Positions 2,672-20,755 of a stretch of 20,755 nt of DNA are shown here, in pieces. Numbering within the stretch: position 1 is the first letter of the stretch; each line of letters opens with the position of its first letter. The position numbers were made by a program, and so were the translations under genes. The DNA is from Planctomycetota bacterium (GTDB lineage: Bacteria; Planctomycetota; GCA-002687715; DRQF01): the NCBI GenBank assembly GCA_036479435.1, contig JAZGFI010000059.1, forward strand, positions 1 through 20,755. Direction: 5' to 3'. The notes below the pieces were generated by a model, which worked only from the letters and a program-made list of their open reading frames with translations, ran no database searches and had not been told where the DNA came from.

Positions 2672-4684
2672 ATGGCCGCGTCCGACTCTCCCGCCAAACT
2701 TGCGATCGATACCATCCGAACCTTGTCCATGGACGCGGTTCAAGCCGCCAATTCGGGGCACCCCGGAACGCCCATGGCTCTGGCCCCAGTGATGTACCGG
2801 ATCTGGGATCATTTTCTGCAGCACCATCCGGCCGACCCGGATTTTCCCAACCGAGATCGCTTTGTGTTGTCGGTGGGGCACGCTTCGATGTTGCTCTACT
2901 CGACATTGCACTTGACCGGCTATGACCTGTCGCTCGATGACATCAAGAGTTTTCGCCAACTCCACAGTCCCTGTGCGGGGCACCCCGAGTTCGGCGAATG
3001 CCCCGGGGTCGAGACGACGACGGGGCCTTTGGGGCAGGGTTGCGGCAACACCGTCGGCATGGCCATTGCCCAAAAACACCTCGCCGCGCGTTACAACCGG
3101 CCGGGTCATGACGTCGTCACTTGGCGCACGATCGCCCTTTGTGGTGACGGCGACTTGATGGAAGGCGTTACCAGCGAAGCCGCTTCGCTCGCCGGACACC
3201 TAGGTCTCGACAATCTGGTTTGGGTCTACGACGACAACAGCATTACGATCGAAGGCTCGACCGATCTCGCCTTCGGCGAAAACGTCCAAGGGCGTTTTGA
3301 GGCCTACGGCTGGCAAGTCCTTAACGTTGCGGATGCGAACGATCTTGACGCTTTGGACGAAGCCCTCGAGAGCGCTGAGGCGGTCATGGGCGCTCCGGTC
3401 TTGATCATTGTCAAGAGCCATATCGGCTACGGCGCTCCCAATAAGCAAGACACTTCGGATGCCCACGGCGCGCCCTTGGGTGTCGAAGAAATCGCGGCGG
3501 CCAAGAAGTTCTACGGCTGGGACCCCGACAAGACTTTTTATGTGCCCACAGAAGTCAAGGATTCCATGACGAACCGTGCGATGGCGCGTGGCAAAGAACT
3601 CGTCATGGAGTGGGAAGGCAAGATGCAGGCCTACCGCACCGCCCACCCCGAGCTCGCAGCAGAATTCGAGGCCTTTTTGGCCGGAGACTTACCAGAAGGT
3701 TGGGATAGCGAGCTTCCGACCTTCGCCGCCGACGCCAAGGGAATGGCGGGGCGCGGGGCCTTCGGCCAGGCTCTCAATGCCAGCGCTGGCAAGGTCCCCT
3801 GGTTAATGGGGGGCTCGGCAGACCTCGCTTCTTCCAACAAGACCAACATCAAAGGCGAAAAGAGCTTCTTGAAGGGACAGTACGACGGTCGCAACATGCA
3901 CTTCGGCGTGCGTGAGCACGCCATGGGTTCCATCGCGAACGGTATGGCGCTCGCTGGCCTACGCGCCTACACCGGAACCTTCTTCGTGTTTAGCGACTAC
4001 ATGCGCCCGGCACATCGTCTTTCGGGCTTGATGGAGCTTCCGGTTATCTACGTCTATACGCACGACAGTATCGGCGTCGGCGAAGACGGGCCTACCCACC
4101 AGCCCATCGAACATTTGCCGAGCCTGCGCGCGATCCCCAACCTTGATGTTATTCGCCCCGGCGATGCCAATGAGGTGGTGGAGGCTTGGCGTTGCGCCTT
4201 AGAAGTCGACGATCATCCCGTTGCTCTGCTCTTGAGCCGGCAAGCCCATCCGACTCTCGACCGCGACGTCTACGGTGCGAGTGCGGGCTTGCAACACGGT
4301 GCGTATGTTCTTGCAGATAACGCCGAGGGCGAACCCGATGTCATCTTGATCGGAAGCGGGAGCGAGCTTGGCTGTGTTGTTGAGGCCTACGAACGGCTCG
4401 ACAAAGAGGGCGTCAAAGTACGCGCGGTGAGCATGCCCTGTTGGGAGATCTTCGAACGCCAAGATGCCGCTTATCGCGAAGGTGTCTTGCCTCCTAAGGT
4501 TCGGGCACGGGTGGCGATCGAAGCGGCGTCGCCCTTTGGCTGGGAGCGCTACGTTGGTTTGGACGGGTGCGTCATCGGCCGCGAGGGCTTTGGTGCTTCC
4601 GCGCCGGGCGCGGTTTTGTTCGAGCACTTCAAAATCAATGCCGACGCCGTGGTGGAGGCCGCACATGAATTGCTTGCAGATTAG
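2672..4684 (+). CDS. tkt: Transketolase
   Basis: Motifs [46 protein letters not shown], the TPP-binding GDGDLMEG...[11 protein letters not shown] and [16 protein letters not shown]. Start moved to ATG 2672 (GGAG at 2658-2661). Confidence 0.97.
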
Positions 4685-8925: not shown

Positions 8926-9735
8926 CTACTTGTCGTAGGGGTTGATGCGCCAGAGTTTCGTCGTGATGCCCAAGAGCGCTCGGGTGGCGTAGACGCAGAC
9001 TACGAGGGCGTAGATCGCGTAGTAGATCTCGACGTGGTTGATGACGCAGACCAGCAAGATGTAGCTGGGGTAGTCGACGACAAAGCGGCCCGCTTTCTCG
9101 GCCAGGCTCACGAGTTGGGCGATGAGGCTTTTCTTGCTCCCACCTTCGCCCGCGGGGAAGGTTCCCTTCCAGCTGTCGAGCTTTAGGAACTGGGTACAAG
9201 AGATCCCAATCGCCAAGCCGGTGATGCCGGCGAGAGCGCCCAAGATGATGGAGTGCGGGCCAAACCGCTCGACCATGGGCTCGATGAAACCGACGCCATC
9301 TCCGGCCAAGGACTGCTGGTAGAGGCGGATCGCGATCGACAAAAAGACAAAGTAGGCCTTGAGTTCATCGACGAAGAAATCGAAGTGCATGCCGACGGTC
9401 GAGCCAGCCTTGCGGTGGCGGGCGAGTTGCCCATCCAAGGCGTCCAACATGTGGGCGATCATGAACAGCACCGCTCCGAGGACCAGGCCCCAATAGCTGA
9501 GCCACGCCGCTTGGACGCAGAATCCACCGATGCCCACGATCAATGACAGGATCGTGACCTGGTTTGGCGTGATGCGACCGTCTTTGATGAAATAAAGGAC
9601 GAAGGACGCCACCGGCCGCGAGAAGATGCGGAAGGCAAGACCCTCTTTGGCCCCGAGCGTCGTTTGCCGGTGAAGCTCTTTGATTTCGTCCCAGGCCGCA
9701 CTCATTGTCGGATATCTCGCAAGATTCACAGTCAA
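8926..9735 (-). CDS. CDP-alcohol phosphatidyltransferase family protein
   Basis: ITPNQVT motif and family signature DALDGQLAR-x7-G-x3-D-x3-D (LDALDGQLARHRKAGSTVGMHFDFFVD), with hydrophobic helices. Start uncertain (GTG 9735 or ATG 9705). Confidence 0.88.
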   Translation of the reverse strand: MTVNLARYPTMSAAWDEIKELHRQTTLGAKEGLAFRIFSRPVASFVLYFIKDGRITPNQVTILSLIVGIGGFCVQAAWLSYWGLVLGAVLFMIAHMLDALDGQLARHRKAGSTVGMHFDFFVDELKAYFVFLSIAIRLYQQSLAGDGVGFIEPMVERFGPHSIILGALAGITGLAIGISCTQFLKLDSWKGTFPAGEGGSKKSLIAQLVSLAEKAGRFVVDYPSYILLVCVINHVEIYYAIYALVVCVYATRALLGITTKLWRINPYDK

Positions 9736-9993
9736 CCACAGTCGGCTGCCCTTGTAACAAGGCGCGTGATTGATCGAAAACGATCGATCCTGGCCGATCT
9801 GGGCGCTGCGACGAAAAACCGCAGAGTAAAACTCACAGTAGCGTCGGGGTCATCCCTAATGAACTTTGTCTAGTGACATTTGGGAGTTAGAAACAGTTAC
9901 AGTACACCTTCGCGCCTAAGTCACGGATTCGAAACCAAAGCCGTGATCATCGCTTATCCGCCAACATACAAACTTCCCCAACAGGAGAATTCC

Positions 9994-10482
9994 ATGGCAC
10001 GTCCCGCAGCAAAAAAAGACAGTCGATTCGATCGCGCTATCCGTCAGGCATCTAATCGGATCGTCAAAGAAACCCTCGCTGAGCTTCCTGCGAACATGTC
10101 GCTCGGCGAATTGGTCAAAGAGTTTGATCGCTCAAAGTACGGCGTTCAGCTCCGCGAACTCTCGCTCCGCGAATTTGCCGAGTCTTTGGGCGGCGCGGTG
10201 GGAACCGGGAGCCCTCGCACGATGGCGGCAAGTCCTGCGGAGCCAGCGGAAGCGCGGGGGCGAAAGACTTTTAAGACGCGCACCTTGAAAGGTCGTGTTG
10301 CTTATGACGCGGCCATCAGCGCCGCTTTGACCAAACGCGGCACCATGAATGCGGAGACGATCGGCTCCGTCGTTGGCGGCGAATCGGATCAGATTCGCAA
10401 GTGCATGAAGAGACTCATGGACCTCGGCCAAGTGCGCAAGACGGGTCAAAAGCGCTCCACCGAGTATCACTGGAAGGGTTAA
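9994..10482 (+). CDS. Small basic hypothetical protein with a probable C-terminal winged-helix DNA-binding domain
   Basis: Strong AGGAGA RBS before ATG 9994; 162 aa, K/R-rich. The C-terminus AISAALTKRGTMNAETIGSVVGGESDQIRKCMKRLMDLGQVRKTGQKRSTEY fits a three-helix plus wing pattern. Confidence 0.75.
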   Translation: MARPAAKKDSRFDRAIRQASNRIVKETLAELPANMSLGELVKEFDRSKYGVQLRELSLREFAESLGGAVGTGSPRTMAASPAEPAEARGRKTFKTRTLKGRVAYDAAISAALTKRGTMNAETIGSVVGGESDQIRKCMKRLMDLGQVRKTGQKRSTEYHWKG

Positions 10483-10527: not shown

Positions 10528-12315
10528 CTACTTTGTCGAAGCGTGGCAATGATCCTGGTCTTGATCGTGATTGTGGCTTTCGACCCATGGCAGAACTTGC
10601 GCCATCAGGGCCCTTGGCCCGCGCCGCAGCAGCGACCACAACAAAAGACCGCAGAGCGCTCCCAGAGCTAAAGCCCGGATGGGGCTGTTGCCAGAATTGG
10701 CCACGGTATCCCAAGATTGCGCCGTGATGGGGCCGGCGAAGGCGTCGATCCCCCAGCCCAGCAAGGTCGTGGTACTGAACACGGTGAGCGCAAAGGCGAA
10801 AGCCAAGCGTCGGCCGTGGAGACGATTCAAAAGCCCAAAAGTCGAGACGTTGGTGGCGGGGCCTGTCAACAAAAAGGCGAGGGCGGCACCGGGCGAAACC
10901 CCCGTCGTGAGCAAAACGGCCACCATTGGCGTCGCCGCCGAAGCGCAGACGTAAAAGGGGACGCCAACTAAGGCGAACAAGGGCACCCGAAGCATCGGCG
11001 GCACGCTGGCCAGCCAACCGGGATTTAGCTCTTCCCCAAATAAGGCGGCGATCGCGATCCCGAGAACGATCCAGGGCGCGGTCGCATCAAAAACGTCCAA
11101 AAGGCCGACCCTCAGCGCTTCGCCAATCGTGCGCGGCCGCGCTTCGATCTCTTCATCGCCCTTAGCAATCTTGGAGGCGTCATCCGCTCGAGCGAATCGA
11201 GCGGCGATCATGCCGACCGAGAACGCCACGACGACGGCGGCTCCGATGCGGATCACCGTCATCTTGGTGCCGAGGAGTGGCAAGGAAATTAAGACCGCGT
11301 CCAGGCCGAGCTCTGGGGTCGCAACCAAAAACGCGAGCCCAGCGGAAAGGCCAACCCGTTTGGTCGCGAGGCTCTTGTAAACCGGTACGACCCCGCATGA
11401 GCAAAGAGGGAGCGGCAATCCAAACGCGATCCCGCGCATGGTTTGTGAAAAGCGACTGCCCCGTGAGAGCCACGACAAGGTGGCGCCAGGCATCAGAGCT
11501 TGGACGATACCCGCGCCGACGAACGCGATGAGAAGGGCGGGAGCGCTCGCAAGACTTAAGGCGATGAAGTAATCGACAAACGGAGCGGCCGTGTTCGTGG
11601 TGTCGTGAACTTCGTGCAAGTGAAAGCGATTAAGTAACCACAATAATCCCAAACCGGCGAGGCCGCCCAATCCCGGGCCAAATCTATCGCGTCCGCCCGC
11701 CTCGCCGGATCGGGGAGCCATGGGATGCAACACGACATGCAAAAGCGATCCGGCGACCAAACCCTCGAAGAGGCCCAAGGGAATCGATGCACTGCGTTCG
11801 ATAAGGGTCTTGCCGCCGAAAAAACCCACGGTGGTGGCGAGCGCCATGAGCCACAGCATGAGGGAGGCAAACCCTCGGCCCCGGTATCTTTTGAGCAAGG
11901 CCCAGATCGTGAGGCCAACCGGGATTCTGTGAAGAATGACCGCCAAGGCCAGCTCGGCACTCAGGCTTTGACCGCCGTGGTCATCGGCACCCCCTAAGGC
12001 GGCACCATCGACCAATCCGTGCACAAAAAGCCCACCGACGCCAAGAAACAGGGCCACGGCATGGGCCCGATTGGCGAGCTTTCCGATGGAGCCCTCGAAC
12101 CAGCGCGGCAAAAAGAGCCCGGCCGTGGCCGCGAGGATGGCCCCCCATCCCGCGAGTCGCATGGCCTCGGGCATGACGTGCCCCACGATCAAGCCGGTGA
12201 TCGTGACGAGTATGAACGCGTCGAGCCCGCTCGAAAGGCCTCGTCCCCGACGGACAACGCGATCCGAGAGCGGGCCAACGCACAGGGCGACCAAACTCGC
12301 GAGAAACAAAAACAT
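10528..12315 (-). CDS. Metal permease fusion: N-terminal ZIP-like domain plus C-terminal DUF318/ArsP (SO_0444-like) permease
   Basis: ZIP-like motifs HVMPE, HGLVDGAALG and LHRIPVGL. DUF318 motifs PLPLCSCGVVP, AFLVATPELG, PFYVCASAATP and GAALAFLLTGPATN. His-rich linker and tail. ATG 12315 has a GGAGG RBS (595 aa); the longer 5' extension of the ORF is spurious. Confidence 0.85.
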   Translation of the reverse strand: MFLFLASLVALCVGPLSDRVVRRGRGLSSGLDAFILVTITGLIVGHVMPEAMRLAGWGAILAATAGLFLPRWFEGSIGKLANRAHAVALFLGVGGLFVHGLVDGAALGGADDHGGQSLSAELALAVILHRIPVGLTIWALLKRYRGRGFASLMLWLMALATTVGFFGGKTLIERSASIPLGLFEGLVAGSLLHVVLHPMAPRSGEAGGRDRFGPGLGGLAGLGLLWLLNRFHLHEVHDTTNTAAPFVDYFIALSLASAPALLIAFVGAGIVQALMPGATLSWLSRGSRFSQTMRGIAFGLPLPLCSCGVVPVYKSLATKRVGLSAGLAFLVATPELGLDAVLISLPLLGTKMTVIRIGAAVVVAFSVGMIAARFARADDASKIAKGDEEIEARPRTIGEALRVGLLDVFDATAPWIVLGIAIAALFGEELNPGWLASVPPMLRVPLFALVGVPFYVCASAATPMVAVLLTTGVSPGAALAFLLTGPATNVSTFGLLNRLHGRRLAFAFALTVFSTTTLLGWGIDAFAGPITAQSWDTVANSGNSPIRALALGALCGLLLWSLLRRGPRALMAQVLPWVESHNHDQDQDHCHASTK

Positions 12316-12545
12316 CGAACCCTCCATGGCCTTCGGCAAGTTTTGCTGACCAAAGCCGAGCCTACGAGCAATAACAAACGCCGCTCGGGCGAAGGCAATA
12401 TTCTTCCCAGGCCTGAATGCGCTGGGGAGATGAGCTAATGCTCCATTGGCTTGGGGGATTGAAGGAAAGGGTAGTGACTTTGGGCTGACGCAAGTGTTCA
12501 GGGTTTGGGAGTTGAGAGGCGGGTTTGGGTGGGGTTTGGAATTTC

Positions 12546-12581
12546 TCGACCCTCTTTGGAGTCTCGCGCTATCATGCGCGA
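12546..12581 (+). promoter_or_regulatory. Candidate sigma70 promoter for the XDH-like genes, with the -10 box inside an inverted repeat
   Basis: TCGACC-N18-TATCAT. TATCAT (12570-12575) is flanked by TCGCGC/GCGCGA. GGAG RBS at 12591 precedes TTG 12601. Confidence 0.35.
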
Positions 12582-12600: not shown

Positions 12601-14283
12601 TTGACGGTGACCGACCACGACCTTGCGCACGATGTTTTCAGGCGCCCGATGCGGCTTCAGGACGTCGATGTCGTTGATGGCAAAGAGAGACTTTATGCGG
12701 CGATTCTGCGTGCCCCCACGAGCCGCGGTCGGATCTTGGAGTTTGAGTTGCCCAAAGACCTCAGTGCGCGGGGGATTCACTTCCTTGCGGCACGACACCT
12801 TAGCGGGGGCAACGAACTGCCAGGAGACCGCCCGCTCCTTGCGGACAAGGCCATTCGATACCGCCATGAACCCGTGGGCCTGATTGCTGGAGCGTGCAAG
12901 AACGAAGTCGCCCTGGCACGCGAGGCGATTAGCGTCAAAGTTCAAAGTCGCATTCCCGTGGAGTCGATCTCTGATGCCCTGAATGGTCGCAACATCATTC
13001 ATGGCGAGGACAATGTCTACGTTTCATTCGAGCATGGCGCCAACGAAGACCGCAGCTCTGACCGTGAAGGCCTTGAAGTTTTCGAGGCAACTTACTCCAT
13101 CGCCCATCGCGTGCGCTTGGCGCTTGAGACGCGCTCGGCCTTGGCCGAGAGCGATGGCGACAAGGTTGTCGTCCACTCTTCCGACGGTTGTTCACGGCAG
13201 CTCGGCGAAGGCATCGCGAAGGCCCTAGGGGTGGACGCAAGTCTCGTTCGCCACGTGCCTCTGCGGCAAGGACAGGGATTTTGCAGCTACGATGACACCC
13301 TGCCGATTCTCGCTTCGGCGGGAGCGCTATCTCGCGCATTCAAAAAACCGATCAAGTTGATTTTGGATCGCGATGAAGAGCTGCTTTCGAGCCCCAAGTC
13401 CCCGCCGAGCGAAGTTCAGGTTCGCGCGGAATACGACCAACAGGGCCGCATTCACTCTCTTCGCATCGACGCGGCCTTTGACGCCGGAGCCTACTTGCTC
13501 TGCGCAGAGGACCTGAAGGAGCTGGAACAGGAGCCCGCGCCGGGGCCCTACGACGGTCTCATCACCGGGTTGCGAGTGCGTTTGTTCGCGACGAATACGG
13601 CTCCGAATGCCGAAGCTCATTTCGGCCAATCGGCGCTGCAATTCGCGCTGGAGCGCAGCCTCGATCAGATCGCCGCGCGATTGCACATGGCGCCCGCTAC
13701 TTTGCGCCGCGCCAATTTCTCGTCGGCTTGGTCAGCGTTTGACCCCTGCGCCCTAGAGATGTTGGCGCGCGGAGACGATAGTAGCCTCTACCAGCTTGAT
13801 CCTCTGGATGAGGAGCCCGGCCGCGGTTCCGCGATGGCCTACGGGTGGAGAGGCCCCGAGTGCCTCGTCGCGTCGCGTGTCGTGTGCCGCCTAGATCCTC
13901 TCACGGACGCGCCGCGCATCGAAAGTTTGACGGTCCTCATTCCCGAGGGAAGTGAACTTTCACGGGCCGAGGCCGCCGCAGCTAAGGCGGTCGCACGGGC
14001 CTTTTTCCAAGAGCTTCACTTGTCCTACGGTGCGATCGTGAATGTGAGGATTGGCCAGCTTTGTGCGCCCGGTGCCGCCGACATTCCCGCTGTTGAGGTC
14101 CTGACAGTTCCGAGATCACAACCCGTTGCTCAAGCGGACTTGTTGTTTGCGATCGAGTCGGCCGTGACCTCGGCCCTGATCTCTGCCCTAGGTCACACCC
14201 TTGGTGTCGAACTCTGTGCGCTACCCGTTCCCCCCCGCGAAGTCGGCTTTCAGCGCGGCAAAAAGAAGAGGGCGCGGAAATGA
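12601..14283 (+). CDS. Xanthine dehydrogenase/CoxL-family molybdopterin-subunit homolog, shortened and degenerate
   Basis: Recognisable scaffold: LYAAILRAPTSRGRI, LLADKAIRYRHEPVGLIAG, LETRSALA, KPIKLILDRDEEL, DAGAY, GPY, LDQIAARLHMAPATLRRAN and LPVPP. Only 560 aa, with canonical Moco motifs altered. Translationally coupled to the 2Fe-2S and FAD subunit genes. Confidence 0.8.
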   Translation: MTVTDHDLAHDVFRRPMRLQDVDVVDGKERLYAAILRAPTSRGRILEFELPKDLSARGIHFLAARHLSGGNELPGDRPLLADKAIRYRHEPVGLIAGACKNEVALAREAISVKVQSRIPVESISDALNGRNIIHGEDNVYVSFEHGANEDRSSDREGLEVFEATYSIAHRVRLALETRSALAESDGDKVVVHSSDGCSRQLGEGIAKALGVDASLVRHVPLRQGQGFCSYDDTLPILASAGALSRAFKKPIKLILDRDEELLSSPKSPPSEVQVRAEYDQQGRIHSLRIDAAFDAGAYLLCAEDLKELEQEPAPGPYDGLITGLRVRLFATNTAPNAEAHFGQSALQFALERSLDQIAARLHMAPATLRRANFSSAWSAFDPCALEMLARGDDSSLYQLDPLDEEPGRGSAMAYGWRGPECLVASRVVCRLDPLTDAPRIESLTVLIPEGSELSRAEAAAAKAVARAFFQELHLSYGAIVNVRIGQLCAPGAADIPAVEVLTVPRSQPVAQADLLFAIESAVTSALISALGHTLGVELCALPVPPREVGFQRGKKKRARK

Positions 14284-14753
14284 ACCTGGAGTTCATACTC
14301 GACGATCAGCCGCAGCGAATCCAATCGGAGGGACTCGAAACCCTCATGGATTTACTGCGAGATCGACTCCAAATCGACGCCGTTCCCGATTGTTGCGGTG
14401 AGGGAGATTGTGGAGCTTGCGTGCTCATGATCGATGGTGAGTTAGCGATGGCCTGTCTCGTTCCTGCGGTGCAAATACACCGGCGAGTGATCACGACCGC
14501 CGCCGGGCTTGTCGCCGCTGATCCCAAGCTCGCCGCTACCGTCCAAGCTCTATCTGAATCTTTAGATTGCAGCGTCTGCCTGCCGGGGTTCGTCGCGGCG
14601 GCCGTAGCGGGCGCCCAAAGCTGTCAGGGCCGATTCGACAGCGACACTTTCCGTCGTTCCCTGGCGGGGCAGCTTTGCCCCTGCGGCGAGGCCCAGAGCA
14701 TTTGCCGGACGCTCAAGATGGCACTTTCGCCGAAAGCTGAGGGCCAGTCGTGA
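14280..14753 (+). CDS. XDH/CoxS-family 2x[2Fe-2S] subunit
   Basis: Motifs CGEGDCGACVLMIDG...CL and CSVCLPG...LCPCG (all eight ligand Cys). ATGA overlap with the upstream gene. Confidence 0.9.
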   Translation: MNLEFILDDQPQRIQSEGLETLMDLLRDRLQIDAVPDCCGEGDCGACVLMIDGELAMACLVPAVQIHRRVITTAAGLVAADPKLAATVQALSESLDCSVCLPGFVAAAVAGAQSCQGRFDSDTFRRSLAGQLCPCGEAQSICRTLKMALSPKAEGQS

Positions 14754-15625
14754 GTTCGCGGTCGGGTCTGCTCCGCCGCGTCGAGGTGTTTTCTCCGGAC
14801 ACTCCCGAAGAAGTCGTCCAGCTCTTAAGAGACCTTCCCGCTCCCATCCAAGTCATTGCGGGAGCCACGAGCTTATTGGTGCGGGCTCAGCTGGGGAGGT
14901 GGCAGCCAAAGGGGGTGGTGATCGACCTGTCCTGCGTAGCGGACTTGCAGAGCTTCGAGGTTGGTGAAAAGTTATTAAGAATAGGCTCCACAGTAACTTG
15001 CAGCCAGATGGCCCAGCTTGATGACCGTCATCCCTTGGCCCCAATCTTCGGCGAGGCGACGTGCTTTGGGCCCTTGGCAATCCGGAATCGCGCTACGGTC
15101 GGCGGTAATATCATGCAGGCTCGTGCGACCGCCGACCTGGCGACCGCGCTTTTAGCCCTCGATGCCTCCATCGTTCTGCTCTCGGCCGAGGGACGTCGCC
15201 AGGTGCCGTTGTTCTCATTTTTGGTGGCAGACGGCGAAACCTCGGCGAAATCGACGGAACTGCTGGTCGAAATCCGGATCGAGATCCCCAAGCCGCCCCT
15301 GGTGACTTTTTACCGGAGAGTGGCGCGCTGCGCGGCCGGCAGATCGGTCGTCTCGTTTGCGGGCGTGGTGACCGCCGGGGAACAAGGGCCGCGCTTTCGG
15401 GTCGCCGTCGGGGGCGCTGGCCCGACCGCACTGAGGTTGTTTGAATTGGAGAGAGTTCTCGCCGCCGAGCCCTTATCGGAGGCGCTGATACCCCGGGCCA
15501 TTCGGACTCTTGACTCCGAAATCACGCCGCCGGATGACTTCGAAGAAACGGCTGCCTACCGCCGCCAGCTGATCTCGCGGCTGTTGGCGGAGTTTTTAGA
15601 GCTGAGCCTCAAGCAGGTATCCTGA
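14750..15625 (+). CDS. XDH/CoxM-family FAD-binding subunit
   Basis: Motifs IAGATSL (AGGTxL-like), LRIGSTVT, IRNRATVGGNI...ADLATALLALDA, ELLVEIRI and C-terminal PPDDFEETAAYRR. GTGA overlap with the upstream gene. Confidence 0.9.
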   Translation: MSSRSGLLRRVEVFSPDTPEEVVQLLRDLPAPIQVIAGATSLLVRAQLGRWQPKGVVIDLSCVADLQSFEVGEKLLRIGSTVTCSQMAQLDDRHPLAPIFGEATCFGPLAIRNRATVGGNIMQARATADLATALLALDASIVLLSAEGRRQVPLFSFLVADGETSAKSTELLVEIRIEIPKPPLVTFYRRVARCAAGRSVVSFAGVVTAGEQGPRFRVAVGGAGPTALRLFELERVLAAEPLSEALIPRAIRTLDSEITPPDDFEETAAYRRQLISRLLAEFLELSLKQVS

Positions 15626-15771: not shown

Positions 15772-16134
15772 ATGGATGACTCGCTGACGGCATCGGGAAT
15801 CGTCGTGGCCTTGGTCGCTTTCGGATTTCCCGCCTTCATGTTGATGGTGGCCCGCGCTTTGGGCTCGCGCCGCCCCGACGAGGTAAAGAACTCTGTTTTT
15901 GAGAGTGGCATTCGCCCGGAAGTCGACGCGCGGCGGCGCTTCTCCGTCAAATTTCACGCGGTGGCGCGCCTTGTTCTTGTCCTGCAGGCGGCGCTTACTC
16001 TGATCATTCCTATTGCACTGGTGTTTCGCGGCCAAGCGAGTGCGTCGTTGTGGGCGGCCTTGGCGCTCTTCTTTTTGCCCCTCACGGTGGGGCTTGTTTT
16101 CGCTTACCGCGGTGGGGCACTCCGATGGGAGTAG
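15772..16134 (+). CDS. nuoA: NADH-quinone oxidoreductase subunit A homolog (divergent)
   Basis: 120 aa with 3 TM helices. Motifs KNSVFESGIRP, RFSVKF and C-terminal GALRWE. Overlaps the nuoB start (ATGGGAGTAG). Confidence 0.88.
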   Translation: MDDSLTASGIVVALVAFGFPAFMLMVARALGSRRPDEVKNSVFESGIRPEVDARRRFSVKFHAVARLVLVLQAALTLIIPIALVFRGQASASLWAALALFFLPLTVGLVFAYRGGALRWE

Positions 16135-16673
16135 ATCGTCTACTTAGTCAGCGTGGCTTTATTGCGACCCGCGTCGATTGGGCCCTTCAACGCGCGGTAA
16201 ACTGGGGTCGCGCCGAGTCCTTGTGGCCCCTAGACTTTGGCACCGCCTGTTGCAACTTGGAATTGGAATCTGTCTTGAAAGGAAAAGGCCGGGACGCCCA
16301 AGACTTGGCTTTCCCCGTCGCGAGCCCTCGGCAAGCCGACCTCCTCATTGTGGCGGGCACGATCACCTGGAAGATGGCACCGGTGTTGCGACGTCTGTAC
16401 CGGCAAATGCTTGAGCCGCGATACGTCATCGCCTTCGGAGTTTGCAGCGCGACCGGTGGCATGTACCAAAACTACGCCGTCGTTCCGGGCGTCGACCAAA
16501 TAGTGGATGTCAACATCTACGTTGCCGGTTGTCCGCCGCGCGCCGAGCAATTGTTCGACGCCATCCAGTCGCTAAAAATCCAGATAAAGTCGGGCGAGCC
16601 CCTTCAAGCCGCCACGCGACCAGATGGTCTTGCCAGCGGCAGCTCGTCGAATACCACTGGGGCGGGGGGCTGA
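16125..16673 (+). CDS. nuoB: NADH-quinone oxidoreductase subunit B homolog
   Basis: Motifs SLWPLDFGTACC, SPRQADLLIVAGT, KMAPVLRRLYRQMLEPRYVIAFGVC and GCPPR. All four N2 ligands are present. Confidence 0.95.
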   Translation: MGVDRLLSQRGFIATRVDWALQRAVNWGRAESLWPLDFGTACCNLELESVLKGKGRDAQDLAFPVASPRQADLLIVAGTITWKMAPVLRRLYRQMLEPRYVIAFGVCSATGGMYQNYAVVPGVDQIVDVNIYVAGCPPRAEQLFDAIQSLKIQIKSGEPLQAATRPDGLASGSSSNTTGAGG

Positions 16674-16678
16674 GTCTC

Positions 16679-18382
16679 GTGTCGCTTGACATTCTTTTGG
16701 ATGATTTGGCTGCCGCCTTTCCCTTCTCCGTATTGGAGACCCACAACGGCAGGCTCGGTGCATCTGCACTGATCGACAAGGAATCCACGCTTGAGATCTT
16801 GACCTGGCTCGGCCGCCACGAGAAAAACTCCTTCGAATTTCTAAGCGATCTCAGTGCTCTGGACCGATTCGGACAAGTTGGCATGGATCACCGATTCGAG
16901 GTCGTTTATCAGCTCGTCTCGTGGTCGCGAAAAGAGCGCTTCGCGCTCAAGGTTGCCGTCTCTGAAGACGACCTTGAGGTGCCCAGCGTCTGTTCTATGT
17001 TCCGACTCGCCGATTGGGCCGAGCGTGAGGTCTTTGATCTTTTCGGTATTCGCTTTCGCGGTCACCCCAACTTGAAACGCATCCTCACGCACCAGGCTTT
17101 TCAGGGCCACGCCCTGCGCAAGGATTTCGACATTCAACAAGCATCCCCTCTGGAAGATGTCGACGACATGATCGACGAGATCGGGGCTTGGGGCGAGAAC
17201 CCTGAGGACCTGGGGTTCACCGAACTCGTGCCCTTGAATTTGGGGCCCGCTCACCCGGCCTTGCGTGGGGTCCTAAGGATTCTGGTGAAGATCGACGGCG
17301 AGTGCATCAACCAGGCCGCTTGTGAAATCGGGTACTTGCACCGCGGCGTGGAAAAAGAACTCGAACGTCGCGGGTGGGCCCAGGCGATTCCTTTTACCGA
17401 TCGTTTGAACTGGGCCTCGCCCTGGCTCAACAACCTCGCCTGGTGCGAAGCCGTTGAGCGTTTGCTGGACTTAAAAGTTCCCGATCGCGCCGAGACCATT
17501 CGGGTCATGATGGCTGAACTGTCGCGAATCTCCGACCACGCGACTTGCCTTGCGGCCACCTTCGAAAGCCTCGGCCTTCGCGCGGCCTACTGGAGGCTGC
17601 AGGCCATCACCGAGGGCGTCACGGAACTCAATGAGGCCATTAGCGGTGTGCGGCACAACCCGAGTTTTCTTCGCATTGGCGGGCTCAGTGCCGATTTGCC
17701 CGACGGATTCGAGAATTCCGTGGCCGAGTTTTCAAAACAGCTAGTCGGAGCGATCGACGGCATCCTTGACTTCGTCTTGAGCAACCCGATTTTCGATCGC
17801 CGCACGCGCGGCGTCGGCGTGGTGAGTGCAGCTACCGCATTGAGCTACGGTTGGACCGGGCCCTGCCTTCGGGCGAGCGGCCTCAACTACGACCTCCGGC
17901 AGTTTGATGCCAAAAGCGCTTGGCGCCACTACCGCTTCAAGCCCGCTTGTCGTAAAGGCGGCGACGTTCACGCCCGTATCTTGGTGCGATTCGACGAAAT
18001 CGTCGAGAGCTTGGCCCTCATTGAGCAAGCCCTATATCGACTGAATCCCGGCGAGATCATGACTTCCAACAAGGCCGTAGCGCTGCCCAAAAAAAGCGAC
18101 GTATCCAGTTCGCTGGAGGGCATGGCGAACCACGTTCTGTTGCTGACCGAAGGCATGAAAGTGCCCAAGGGCGAGGTCTACCACGCGATCGAAGGTGCCA
18201 ACGGCGAGTTGGGATTTCACCTCATTTCCGATGGCGGCACGAGGCCGCGCCGCGCCCGTTGTCGCCCGCCGTCGTTTCACAACTACGCTGCTTTTCCGAG
18301 TATCGTGGCGGGGCAGCCGCTTTCACACGCCATTCCGATCTTGGCTTCACTCAACGTCGTCGCCGGAGAGCTGGATCGATGA
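16679..18382 (+). CDS. nuoCD: Fused NADH-quinone oxidoreductase subunit C/D homolog (divergent quinone site)
   Basis: NuoC motif ADWAEREVFDLFGIRFRGHPNLKRIL...GHALRKDF. NuoD motifs LNLGPAHP, GYLHRGVEK, ELSRI, EGANGELG and terminal GELDR. Start probably GTG 16679, just after the nuoB stop. Confidence 0.93.
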   Translation: MSLDILLDDLAAAFPFSVLETHNGRLGASALIDKESTLEILTWLGRHEKNSFEFLSDLSALDRFGQVGMDHRFEVVYQLVSWSRKERFALKVAVSEDDLEVPSVCSMFRLADWAEREVFDLFGIRFRGHPNLKRILTHQAFQGHALRKDFDIQQASPLEDVDDMIDEIGAWGENPEDLGFTELVPLNLGPAHPALRGVLRILVKIDGECINQAACEIGYLHRGVEKELERRGWAQAIPFTDRLNWASPWLNNLAWCEAVERLLDLKVPDRAETIRVMMAELSRISDHATCLAATFESLGLRAAYWRLQAITEGVTELNEAISGVRHNPSFLRIGGLSADLPDGFENSVAEFSKQLVGAIDGILDFVLSNPIFDRRTRGVGVVSAATALSYGWTGPCLRASGLNYDLRQFDAKSAWRHYRFKPACRKGGDVHARILVRFDEIVESLALIEQALYRLNPGEIMTSNKAVALPKKSDVSSSLEGMANHVLLLTEGMKVPKGEVYHAIEGANGELGFHLISDGGTRPRRARCRPPSFHNYAAFPSIVAGQPLSHAIPILASLNVVAGELDR

Positions 18383-19992
18383 CGTCCGACGCGCGAAAGA
18401 CCGAGTTTTTCTCCTGCGTGATCGACGGTAAGGCACTCAAAGTTCGTCGTGGTGAACGCTTGCTTGAAGCCGCGCGCCGCGGCGGCATCGAGATACCGGG
18501 GCTTTGCCACCACTCGAGCCTGTCGCCTTGCGAGGCCTGCGGGCTGTGTCAAGTCGAAGTCCGCGGTTACGACGGCCCCCAAGCCGCGTGCTCCTTGGTC
18601 GTCGAGACGGACCTTCAAGTGCGCTCGCGCAGTCCCGAGTTGGACGGAGTTCGTCGCGAGCGAATCGCGACTTTGTACCGTAATCACCCGGCGGAATGCC
18701 CGGAGTGCGATCTCAACGGCGACTGCTCGATACAGGGCCTGTACCTATCTCACGGTCAACAAGAGCCGCAGGAAAAAAGCTCGAATCAGAGCCCAATATC
18801 TGCGCCCATTCCTTTGGGGCCCGCCGTCGCGCTTCACCTGAGCCGTTGCGTCGGCTGCGAGCTCTGCGTTCGGTTCTCGGCCGAGATCGCTGGCGATCAA
18901 GTTCTTCGGATGCGTGAGGAGGCAGGAGTCAAGTCTGTGGGGCTTGTCCCTGGCTTGTCTTTGAACGGCAATTACTCGCTCAACACAGTTGATTTGTGTC
19001 CGGCCGGAGCGCTCGTCAGTCGTGAGCTCCGGGCGCGTACACCAGCTTGGGCTCGCGAGTCTAAAGAGACCGTGTGTCCCGGATGCGCAACCGGCTGCAA
19101 CGCCTACTTGGATTTCGATCGCGGCCGTGCATTGCGTTTGCGGCCGCGCCGCAACGATGAAGTCAACAGCTCATGGATGTGCGACTTGGGGCGCGAAGAA
19201 TCGAAACAAATCGGAGCAGATCGCCTGTCGCAACCGATGGCGAGCGGAATCGAGGTCGATTGGTCGGGAGCGATTGTGAGTACTTCACAGATCCTTGCCC
19301 CCCTGCGTGAGGCGGGTTTGAATCGGATTGGCGCAGCATTGAGTTTTGATGCGACCTGTGAAGAAGCTTGGTTGTTGCACCGTCTCATGAGCGAGGTCTT
19401 TGGGCAGCACCAGGTCGCGGTCCTGCCGCGTCGCGCCGAAGGCGCCGCCGATGATTTTCTCCTTGATGCGGACAAGCACCCCAATCGTCTCGGTGTGCTC
19501 TTAGTGCTTCAAGATGGCGTGGCGCCAGATCCCGCCGCGTATTTCGAATCGCTGGATGCCGTCATCGTCATGGATGTCGATCCGAGTGCCGAAATTCACG
19601 ATGAACTTCAGCGCCGAGCCTACGCCGGTGTCAAACATCGCATTGTCCTTTCCTCACGGGAAACGTCTTCGGTGTCCGACGCGAGCGTGGTCTTGCCCAT
19701 GACGAGTTTTGCGGCGAAAAACGGGACTTGGGTCAACCGACAGGGCCGCGTGCAAGGCCTGGTCTCTGCGGTCTCAGTTGGCGCGGAATTCTCTCGCGGG
19801 CGTGATGCGCTAAAGCTCTTGACCGCGATAGCAGGGGCGATGCATGTCGACTGGGACGAGCCCTCGGTGCCGGACTTGTTCGCCGAGATCAGCGCACAGC
19901 GCCCGCGGTTTGGCGGTTTGGCATTTGATGAGTTGGGTGGCCGAGGCATGCGGTTGCGCAAGCCAGATTCCGCCGCGGGAGGCCCGGCATGA
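18379..19992 (+). CDS. nuoG: NuoG-like Fe-S subunit (short form, 537 aa)
   Basis: N1b: PGLC...CEACGLC...AAC. N5: NHPAECPECDLNGDC. N4: RCVGCELCVRF...DLCPAGAL. N7-type: CPGCATGC...WMCDLGR. C-terminal motif ASVVLP...KNGTWVNRQGRVQ. ATGA overlap with nuoCD. Confidence 0.9.
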   Translation: MTSDARKTEFFSCVIDGKALKVRRGERLLEAARRGGIEIPGLCHHSSLSPCEACGLCQVEVRGYDGPQAACSLVVETDLQVRSRSPELDGVRRERIATLYRNHPAECPECDLNGDCSIQGLYLSHGQQEPQEKSSNQSPISAPIPLGPAVALHLSRCVGCELCVRFSAEIAGDQVLRMREEAGVKSVGLVPGLSLNGNYSLNTVDLCPAGALVSRELRARTPAWARESKETVCPGCATGCNAYLDFDRGRALRLRPRRNDEVNSSWMCDLGREESKQIGADRLSQPMASGIEVDWSGAIVSTSQILAPLREAGLNRIGAALSFDATCEEAWLLHRLMSEVFGQHQVAVLPRRAEGAADDFLLDADKHPNRLGVLLVLQDGVAPDPAAYFESLDAVIVMDVDPSAEIHDELQRRAYAGVKHRIVLSSRETSSVSDASVVLPMTSFAAKNGTWVNRQGRVQGLVSAVSVGAEFSRGRDALKLLTAIAGAMHVDWDEPSVPDLFAEISAQRPRFGGLAFDELGGRGMRLRKPDSAAGGPA

Positions 19993-20755
19993 TTTGGTCC
20001 GGCGCCATGTTGGAGACGCTTTCGCTCGTCGGCGTGGCGGCTTTTTCCCTACCTTTCATTGCGGCGATTGAACGTGGCGGCGAAGCTCGTTTCGGTGGCC
20101 GTCGCAGTTTGGGGGCTTTGGGATTTCGACAGAGTATTGCGGACTTTTTGAAACTGTTCGCGAAAGAGGATTTCGTTCCCAACCACTCGTCTCGGCGGCT
20201 TTACACTTTGGCCCCAATTTTAGCCTTCGGTTTCGCATTCTGTGGTCTCGCTTTTCTGCCCTTAGTGCCCGCCGTCAGAGACGAGCACGGCGTGACCAAG
20301 TCAGTCGTCATTGAAAGCGATTACGGGCTCTTTTGGTTGCTGATGCTGTTCGCCGCGGGCTGTGCGTCGTCGGCGCTCGGAGGCTGGGCGTCGAACAATA
20401 AGTTGAGCTTGCTGGGCGGCGTGCGCGCGCTGTCGCGGCTGGTCGCGGTGCAAGTCGTGTTTGTGCTCGCGATGGCGACACTGGCCATGAGCGCCGCAAG
20501 CGCGCGCTTGGATTTGATCGCCTCATCTCAAAACCAGCCCTTCTTGGCGCTTTTGCCGCAGTGGAATATCTTTACCCAGCCCTTAGGCGCGGTGGTTTGC
20601 TTCCTGAGCGGATTGGCTTTGTGCGCGGCATCGCCTTTTGATCTGGTCGAGGGCCGCGGAAAAGAGAACCTCCTCGATCCACGCGCTGAATACGGTGCCT
20701 TGAAGTTCGCCTTTTTCATCGTGGCCGACCGCATCAGGCTCTTTACCTTTGCCGT
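19989..20755 (+). CDS. nuoH: NADH-quinone oxidoreductase subunit H homolog (divergent; 3' truncated by the window end)
   Basis: Not in the ORF track because it has no stop in the window. Manual translation gives MIWSGAMLETL...ER...QSIADFLKLFAKEDFVP...LAP...GGWASNNKLSLLGGVR...QWNIFTQP...PFDLVE...EYGALKFAFF. ATGA overlap with nuoG. Confidence 0.92.
   Translation, partial: MIWSGAMLETLSLVGVAAFSLPFIAAIERGGEARFGGRRSLGALGFRQSIADFLKLFAKEDFVPNHSSRRLYTLAPILAFGFAFCGLAFLPLVPAVRDEHGVTKSVVIESDYGLFWLLMLFAAGCASSALGGWASNNKLSLLGGVRALSRLVAVQVVFVLAMATLAMSAASARLDLIASSQNQPFLALLPQWNIFTQPLGAVVCFLSGLALCAASPFDLVEGRGKENLLDPRAEYGALKFAFFIVADRIRLFTFA

Follow-up and report, generated by a model that had tools for sequence, protein, structure and literature searches.

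A planctomycete nuo operon that has lost its quinone triad and most membrane-axis residues probably encodes a catalytically dead complex I with all iron-sulfur ligands kept

Introduction

The nuoCD fusion gene of a planctomycete operon raises the question of what a complex I subunit does once the residues that bind and protonate quinone have been replaced. The original prediction was that the His/Tyr/Asp triad of NuoD had changed (H>R, Y>W, D>S), that this subunit either does not reduce quinone or binds a different acceptor, and that the change was site-specific. We analysed the window, the whole stretch of 20,755 nucleotides that carries the gene, together with the remainder of the host genome (G000, 5.5 Mb) and related genomes. 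The closest named homologs of the host proteins point to a planctomycete. One sequence run matching the window was labelled invertebrate metagenome, and no RNA run was listed among those matching it.

Results

The quinone triad is replaced in an intact nuoCD gene

The nuoCD fusion (16679..18382, + strand) encodes 567 aa in an intact frame with a normal predicted fold. The AlphaFold model had a pLDDT of 86.5, low only at the loop bearing Arg196 and at the C-terminus, and compared to E. coli NuoCD with a TM score of 0.89. A profile search found the Pfam 30 kDa and 49 kDa domains above cut-off, and NuoCD scored 393 bits against both PRK06075, passing the cut-off of 360, and TIGR01962, below the cut-off of 459. 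A gap-free alignment put Arg196 (CGT, 17264..17266) on the column of E. coli NuoCD His228 in the quinone site, Trp245 (TGG, 17411..17413) on that of Tyr277 and Ser297 (AGC, 17567..17569) on that of Asp329, all on the + strand. This confirmed the three replacements, with the codons exactly where they had been predicted. The RERE-type motif was also altered as predicted, Thr311 standing in place of the RE-motif Arg, and NuoD H224 was kept. The equivalent triad in T. thermophilus Nqo4 we take to be residues 38, 87 and 139. The triad was retained in 119/119 of the best NuoCD homologs and in all 14 same-order orthologs. The quinone-protonating residues are given as bovine His59, Asp160 and Tyr108 in the available portion of PMC7613608, and H228-D329 are named among them in the available portion of PMC10212512. 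The quinone site of a functional complex I was not found here, as NuoD reads R/W/S.

The changes in NuoCD were not confined to the triad. NuoCD deviated at 34 of 165 invariant columns, as compared to a maximum of 8 and a median of 1 in the other homologs. Residues 289-332 (17543..17674, + strand), the helix with the Asp column and the RE motif, were changed at 12 of 19 invariant columns versus 22 of 146 elsewhere (p 2e-5 for a stretch picked post hoc), and residues 216-244 around N2 kept 16 of 18. The chance of losing the whole triad at NuoCD's own rate of invariant-column loss was about 0.01-0.02, suggesting that triad loss was only modestly above the general erosion of the protein. The missing triad together with the changed neighbouring helix supports the predicted lack of quinone reduction, which we consider probable from the sequence. 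The proposal of a site-specific change did not hold against the number of altered NuoCD columns, the deletion of nuoEF and the stripping of the proton path in NuoA, H, J, K, L and N described below.

The triad codons were covered by contigs of runs X2, X3 and X6, which come from three studies, and no difference was seen among those listed; the X6 piece (17221-18311) had 0 other letters. The assembly itself may derive from X2 and from the X6 sample; X3 is not marked in this way. The identical NuoCD protein was present on 4 contigs, and reaching either Trp or Ser takes two base changes, making sequencing error unlikely. The multi-study contigs, the 4 identical copies and a normal transketolase ruled out sequencing error or recoding. 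The operon part of the window contained 2 SNPs, both missense.

Variant contigs were seen elsewhere in the window. Contigs about 8% different covered 2911-3982 (transketolase) in runs X2, X3, X6 and X7, and variants of 9082-9142 (CDP-alcohol phosphatidyltransferase gene) were present in X2 and X3 too. They occurred at about a third of depth in X2, none was listed over the nuo genes, and they possibly belong to a co-occurring relative. In positions 1-160 a short sequence of about 37 bp is repeated in tandem, and contig C55 has a similar copy.

The protein descends from a true NuoD

MBX/MBS, FpoD and group 4 hydrogenase large subunits belong to the same superfamily as NuoD and use non-quinone or other acceptors. 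NuoCD matched 6u8y (5e-39) and 6cfw (2e-34) more weakly, scored 275 bits against FpoD (cut-off 600) and 23 bits against the hydrogenase model (cut-off 1101). Neither the DRLN motif nor the C-terminal GELDR motif contains a Cys; these we take to be the positions of the Ni-binding CxxC or catalytic cysteines in hydrogenase and MBX/MBS types. As judged from these sequence comparisons, the host NuoCD is a descendant of a true NuoD and not of MBX/MBS, FpoD or a hydrogenase. Its place in complex I by descent follows from NuoCD sequence and fold and from the conserved order of core subunits.

The NADH module and most membrane-axis residues are lost

The genes are ordered A-B-CD-G-H-I-J-K-L-(M)-N and are orthologous by synteny and tree to the operon of relatives. 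In the window nuoCD is flanked on the + strand by nuoA (15772..16134), nuoB (16125..16673), a short nuoG (18379..19992) and nuoH (19989..20755), which exits the window. The remainder lies on C98 (end of nuoH, nuoI, J, K and start of L) and C62 (nuoM stub and nuoN); NuoM, bar a C-terminal stub at the contig end, and the second half of NuoL fall within an assembly gap, into which a contig of run X3 extends about 1.7 kb past C98. The locus of same-family relatives, full or partial depending on the locus, reads xdh(Mo, FeS, FAD)-nuoA-B-CD-E-F-G-H-I-J-K-L-M-N. In the host nuoE and nuoF have been deleted at the point where the nuoCD stop and nuoG start overlap as ATGA (18379..18382, + strand), and the operon is therefore missing both subunits of the NADH/FMN module. 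The only NuoF-like gene found in the host genome was inside a formate dehydrogenase cluster on C131. Adjoining this cluster (C131:7652-13006, L007) were three FG-GAP-repeat exported proteins encoded in tandem, whose C-terminal domains are nearly identical.

The host carries a single NuoD and 7 of 8 same-family relatives have a second one, which was part of an 11-gene operon in both relatives examined. No second nuo operon was found in the host assembly; the assembly is only 92% complete and the operon could be absent from it for that reason.

Fifteen membrane-axis positions that are invariant in 7-11 relatives were compared, and 12 of these were replaced in the host, mostly with neutral residues. 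The replacements were D79Q and E81A in NuoA (E81 being, as we assume, a proton-path position), E157Q in NuoH, Y59F in NuoJ, E36Q and E72Q in NuoK, K217A, K247L, H305Q and K395R in NuoN, and H254Q and E144T in NuoL, the alignment being less sure for E144T. NuoN E133 and NuoL D178 and K229 were retained. The E-channel carboxylates were lost, with NuoH E157, NuoA D79 and NuoK E36/E72 all Gln, and the central Lys/Glu/His axis was broken in NuoL and NuoN (the host NuoM being unassembled). NuoH also carried R209A and E218R and kept carboxylates E216, E220 and E228; NuoB kept E67 and its D77 loop was remodelled. The proton-path role of the membrane-axis residues is stated in the consulted parts of bioRxiv 10.64898/2026.01.27.702182 and of PMC7613608 (section 5), and according to the former D79N alone drastically impedes pumping.

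The subunits had diverged throughout, keeping 31-73% of invariant columns as compared to medians of 96-100% when relatives were left out in turn. They were 25-49% identical to those of relatives, which were 50-76% identical among themselves (mean per subunit). The control transketolase of the host kept 160 of 163 invariant columns (98%) and its RpoB was 85% identical to that of G017. Genome-wide fast evolution was rejected for the controls examined, as transketolase, RpoB, ATP synthase, Mrp and Nqr identities were ordinary.

An Xdh-like enzyme upstream is hollowed as well

Three Xdh-like genes precede nuoA on the + strand. The PucD/XdhA-like Mo subunit (12601..14283) is about 190 aa shorter than those of relatives, its start codon being uncertain, and it has no glycine-rich Moco motifs and no catalytic Glu. 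The [2Fe-2S] subunit (14280..14753) kept 8/8 cysteines. The FAD subunit (14750..15625) kept most FAD motifs, with two changes in the FAD motif, and had no close-relative match in the searched genome contigs. The enzyme shares the Mo/FeS/FAD three-gene layout, the FeS cysteines and most FAD motifs with the PucD/XdhA-type (PucCDE-like) Mo hydroxylases and differs from them in the Moco motifs, catalytic Glu and residues missing from its Mo subunit. A single in-frame TGA, possibly encoding selenocysteine, occurs in the genes for Xdh-like Mo subunits on host contig C124 (35-1714), on G019 C212 and on G022 C102.

Just upstream of the xdh-nuo run is a match to a sigma-70-like consensus (12546..12575, + strand; pattern match only). 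One copy of a dispersed repeat (about 43 bp, without obvious identity, 47 blastn hits in the host genome) lies at 12465-12509 between a divergent permease gene and the xdh-nuo run. The permease (10528-12315, - strand) has an ArsP_1 domain, a preceding His-rich membrane domain and a His-rich tail, and is perhaps a metal transporter fusion. Positions 9880-10482 (+ strand) encode a small basic protein with a terminal weak winged-helix match (TrmB, below cut-off).

All iron-sulfur ligands are kept

The losses in the nuo and Xdh-like subunits were accompanied by complete retention of Fe-S ligands (36/36), 28/28 in Nuo and 8/8 in the small Xdh subunit. NuoG kept 16/16 ligands of N1b, N4, N5 and N7 and NuoB 4/4 N2 cysteines; with N6a and N6b the ligands of the whole Fe-S chain were present. 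At the background column retention of 335/510, keeping all 28 Nuo ligands had a p of about 8e-6. No internal stops were found in the assembled parts of the nuo genes. In a neutral simulation of 2684 codons from an intact relative, at least 2 stops arose in 200/200 runs at 90% identity; this was conservative as only point mutations and no indels were simulated. Retention of all ligands with no stops found is not what neutral decay would give. Codon-position GC of the nuo genes was like that of other genes. No relatives between 50% and 100% identity were found for dN/dS.

The retained ligands fit a non-pumping electron wire, in which the N1b-N4-N5-N6a-N6b-N2 chain would feed a non-quinone acceptor or act as a redox buffer or sensor, with the Xdh FAD/[2Fe-2S] pair, the FDH flavoprotein or a ferredoxin as proposed input. 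Full ligand retention across both sets of subunits, the FAD motifs largely kept in both stripped genera (see below), the kept residues around N2 and a peripheral arm (363/538 invariant columns) better preserved than the membrane arm (227/493) would all be expected of a wire. However, the off-path cluster N7, described in the consulted part of the literature as needed for stability and not for electron transfer, was kept like the on-path clusters, so that ligand retention need not mean electron transfer and fits folding alone. The acceptor site also has no common replacement chemistry, the host FAD motif carries its two changes, and the entire membrane arm, superfluous for a wire, was retained. 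We regard a wire as unlikely.

A second genus carries the same stripped locus

The same xdh-nuo locus was stripped in another genus (G003), with a NuoD triad of R/P/G. NuoA, J, K, L, M and N and the Xdh Mo subunit were degraded there too, the four NuoB cysteines were kept, and NuoM retained E144 and K234. NuoL of G003 lies in two frames; the same assembly also breaks rpoB, suggesting that the frame split may be either an error or real decay. Orthologs of nuoG, nuoH and nuoF were not found in G003 with the queries used and are probably in an assembly gap (81% complete). New residues common to both genomes were NuoD His>Arg, NuoK E72Q, NuoN H305Q and K395R, and NuoA E81A.

The two transketolases were sisters (81/87) on normal branches. 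The two NuoCDs were sisters at 98 inside the planctomycete clade, on a long common stem, and we count the stripping in the two genera as one event. The NuoCD tip branches after the split were 0.57 and 2.76, indicating that erosion went on after it.

The locus might instead be a functionless relic, a transcribed operon in which selection only purges truncations and misfolding that cause toxic half-assembly or downstream polarity. Two unrelated enzymes of one operon were hollowed alike, at rates far above normal, the gene 3' of nuoN is conserved at 59-65%, and many replacements in the His column of other NuoDs lie one base change away (see below), all of which a relic would explain. A promoter mutation or deletion would offer a simple exit, as in the clean deletion of nuoEF, yet the operon survived in two lineages whose transketolases are 31% different and whose GC is 58% versus about 75% (genome and locus values), and the new residues they share persist in both. 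We therefore consider a relic improbable.

Stripped NuoDs elsewhere share no replacement

We surveyed the 149 nearest NuoD representatives at 50% identity, of which 135 cover all three triad columns; the 14 gapped rows were omitted. Clustering at this level over-represents fast-evolving proteins, and Fpo- or Mbx-like proteins may be among the rows. H-Y-D/E was found in 84 representatives, 44 had lost at least two triad residues and 23 had lost all three. Replacements in stripped representatives were nearly all different, with almost no repeated triplet, which argues against one new acceptor. On the FastTree tree the stripped state required at least 6 changes of state.

FastTree grouped the two planctomycetes with other stripped rows; in a site-heterogeneous tree (a quick search of 30 selected rows) they fell among planctomycete orthologs, separate from the 10 other stripped rows used. 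As this tree separated the stripped rows, the FastTree join was treated as long-branch attraction and a single ancient family of stripped NuoDs was rejected.

Homologs with Arg or Trp at these columns did turn up: Arg at the His column in 9 other representatives and Trp at the Tyr column with otherwise canonical motifs (H-W-D/E) in 4/135 (P0210, P0219, P0244, P0266), so that Trp alone is not diagnostic. Replacements in the His column (R, Q, N, P) were often one base change from His.

The different acceptor of the original prediction, which we pictured as a targeted pocket change with Arg196 holding an anion beside N2, gained little from these comparisons. In its favour, Arg is common to G003 and the 9 other representatives and the changes concentrate in the pocket helix. 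Against this, a single transition turns His into Arg, the Tyr and Asp columns carry different residues in nearly all stripped proteins, G003 included, the cysteines of the hydrogenase or sulfur-reductase type are missing at what we take to be their motifs, and the proton path and input module are gone as well. A new acceptor seems very unlikely to us. The Trp representatives could also point to an enzyme that still reduces quinone despite the changes, slowly or without coupling, and a yeast complex I Tyr-to-Trp mutant reportedly keeps some activity with short quinones. In the host, however, all of the triad has changed along with the Arg of the RE motif and the loop of NuoB, and the operon has no NADH module, leaving residual activity of this kind barely credible.

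Na+-NQR is present in both stripped genera

NqrB was found in only 3 of 23 genomes of the class, the two with stripped operons and G013. The host has complete nqrA-F, ACIII, oxidase, menaquinone (mqnA/D-family) and Mrp genes, and loss of quinones or respiration was excluded on the mqnA/D-family, ACIII and oxidase genes. A second ACIII-like cluster on host contig C137 (5415-6902 of locus L176) includes a gene that weakly matches heme-copper oxidase subunit I (59 bits). The ATP synthase c-subunit of the host does not have what we take to be the Na+ motif, suggesting that proton force is still used, and a switch to Na+ bioenergetics as the full explanation was rejected on this ground.

G013 combines NQR with an 11-gene nuo operon that has canonical NuoD and NuoK motifs, and no ortholog of the 14-gene operon was found in it. 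NQR gain is thus not always followed by stripping. With the two stripped genera counted as one stripping event and G013 as one loss, the link to NQR rests on these two.

Discussion

The operon has descended directly from the 14-gene operon of its family, as shown by synteny and tree. It resembles E. coli Nuo/NDH-1 (NuoCD 7z7t, 7p61) and the family orthologs in gene order, NuoCD fold and Fe-S ligands, and unlike canonical complex I it has no nuoEF, no quinone triad and few of its membrane-axis residues. The 11-subunit complex I-like enzymes (PMC3144371, PMC11238625, as far as their available text goes) likewise have no NADH-binding module; unlike them the host keeps NuoG and has lost the quinone and proton residues, and the relatives' own 11-gene operons keep His/Tyr/Asp in 4/4 checked. 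In SAR116 LGC2-C/D, Na+-NQR replaces complex I and a leftover nuoL sits beside nqr, according to the accessible part of PMC8547437. The nuo operon was replaced there, whereas the host keeps a nearly whole, stripped operon far from nqr. No description of a stripped complex I was found in the open literature, with most subscription papers and supplements outside the search.

From sequence evidence the complex is very probably catalytically dead. The wider reading, to which we give an even chance, is that of a pseudo-complex I that would assemble with its clusters and be kept for a structural, non-enzymatic role after NQR takeover. The ancestor of the two stripped genera would have gained Na+-NQR, which took over NADH oxidation, and the second (11-gene) nuo operon would then have been lost. 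Catalysis in the remaining operon would have become dispensable, and buried charges may have drifted to neutral or hydrophobic residues, sealing the membrane arm against leaks. The folded, cluster-loaded complex would still be needed as a scaffold, for example in organising respiratory partners or the membrane, with the clusters kept because the subunits need them for folding. A scaffold role in the membrane is our inference, and the number of invariant columns kept in the membrane arm counts against it, being weak for a tight scaffold. The erosion that went on after the two genera split also speaks against the wider reading, as do the residues still present in NuoH (E216, E220, E228), NuoB (E67) and NuoD (H224). 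The FAD/Fe-S pair of the hollowed xanthine dehydrogenase might be a new partner of the complex. That pseudo-complex I is a recurring end-state, with the chemistry lost and the chassis kept as scaffold, Fe-S redox buffer or sensor, is possible but falls somewhat short of an even chance in our estimate. The host lineage makes a clean case, as this is the only complex I found, intact sister-genus orthologs exist and a hollowed xanthine dehydrogenase is paired with it.

Energy conservation is the assumed reason why complex I is retained. A cluster-binding copy that likely neither catalyses nor pumps, present in two deeply diverged genera, would point to an uncharacterised non-catalytic function. 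In addition, the locus offers a natural experiment: set against its intact orthologs, it can tell residues required for folding apart from those required for coupling. Annotation pipelines would score this genome as complex I-positive, and with 44 of 135 distant NuoDs having lost most of the triad such miscalls may be common.
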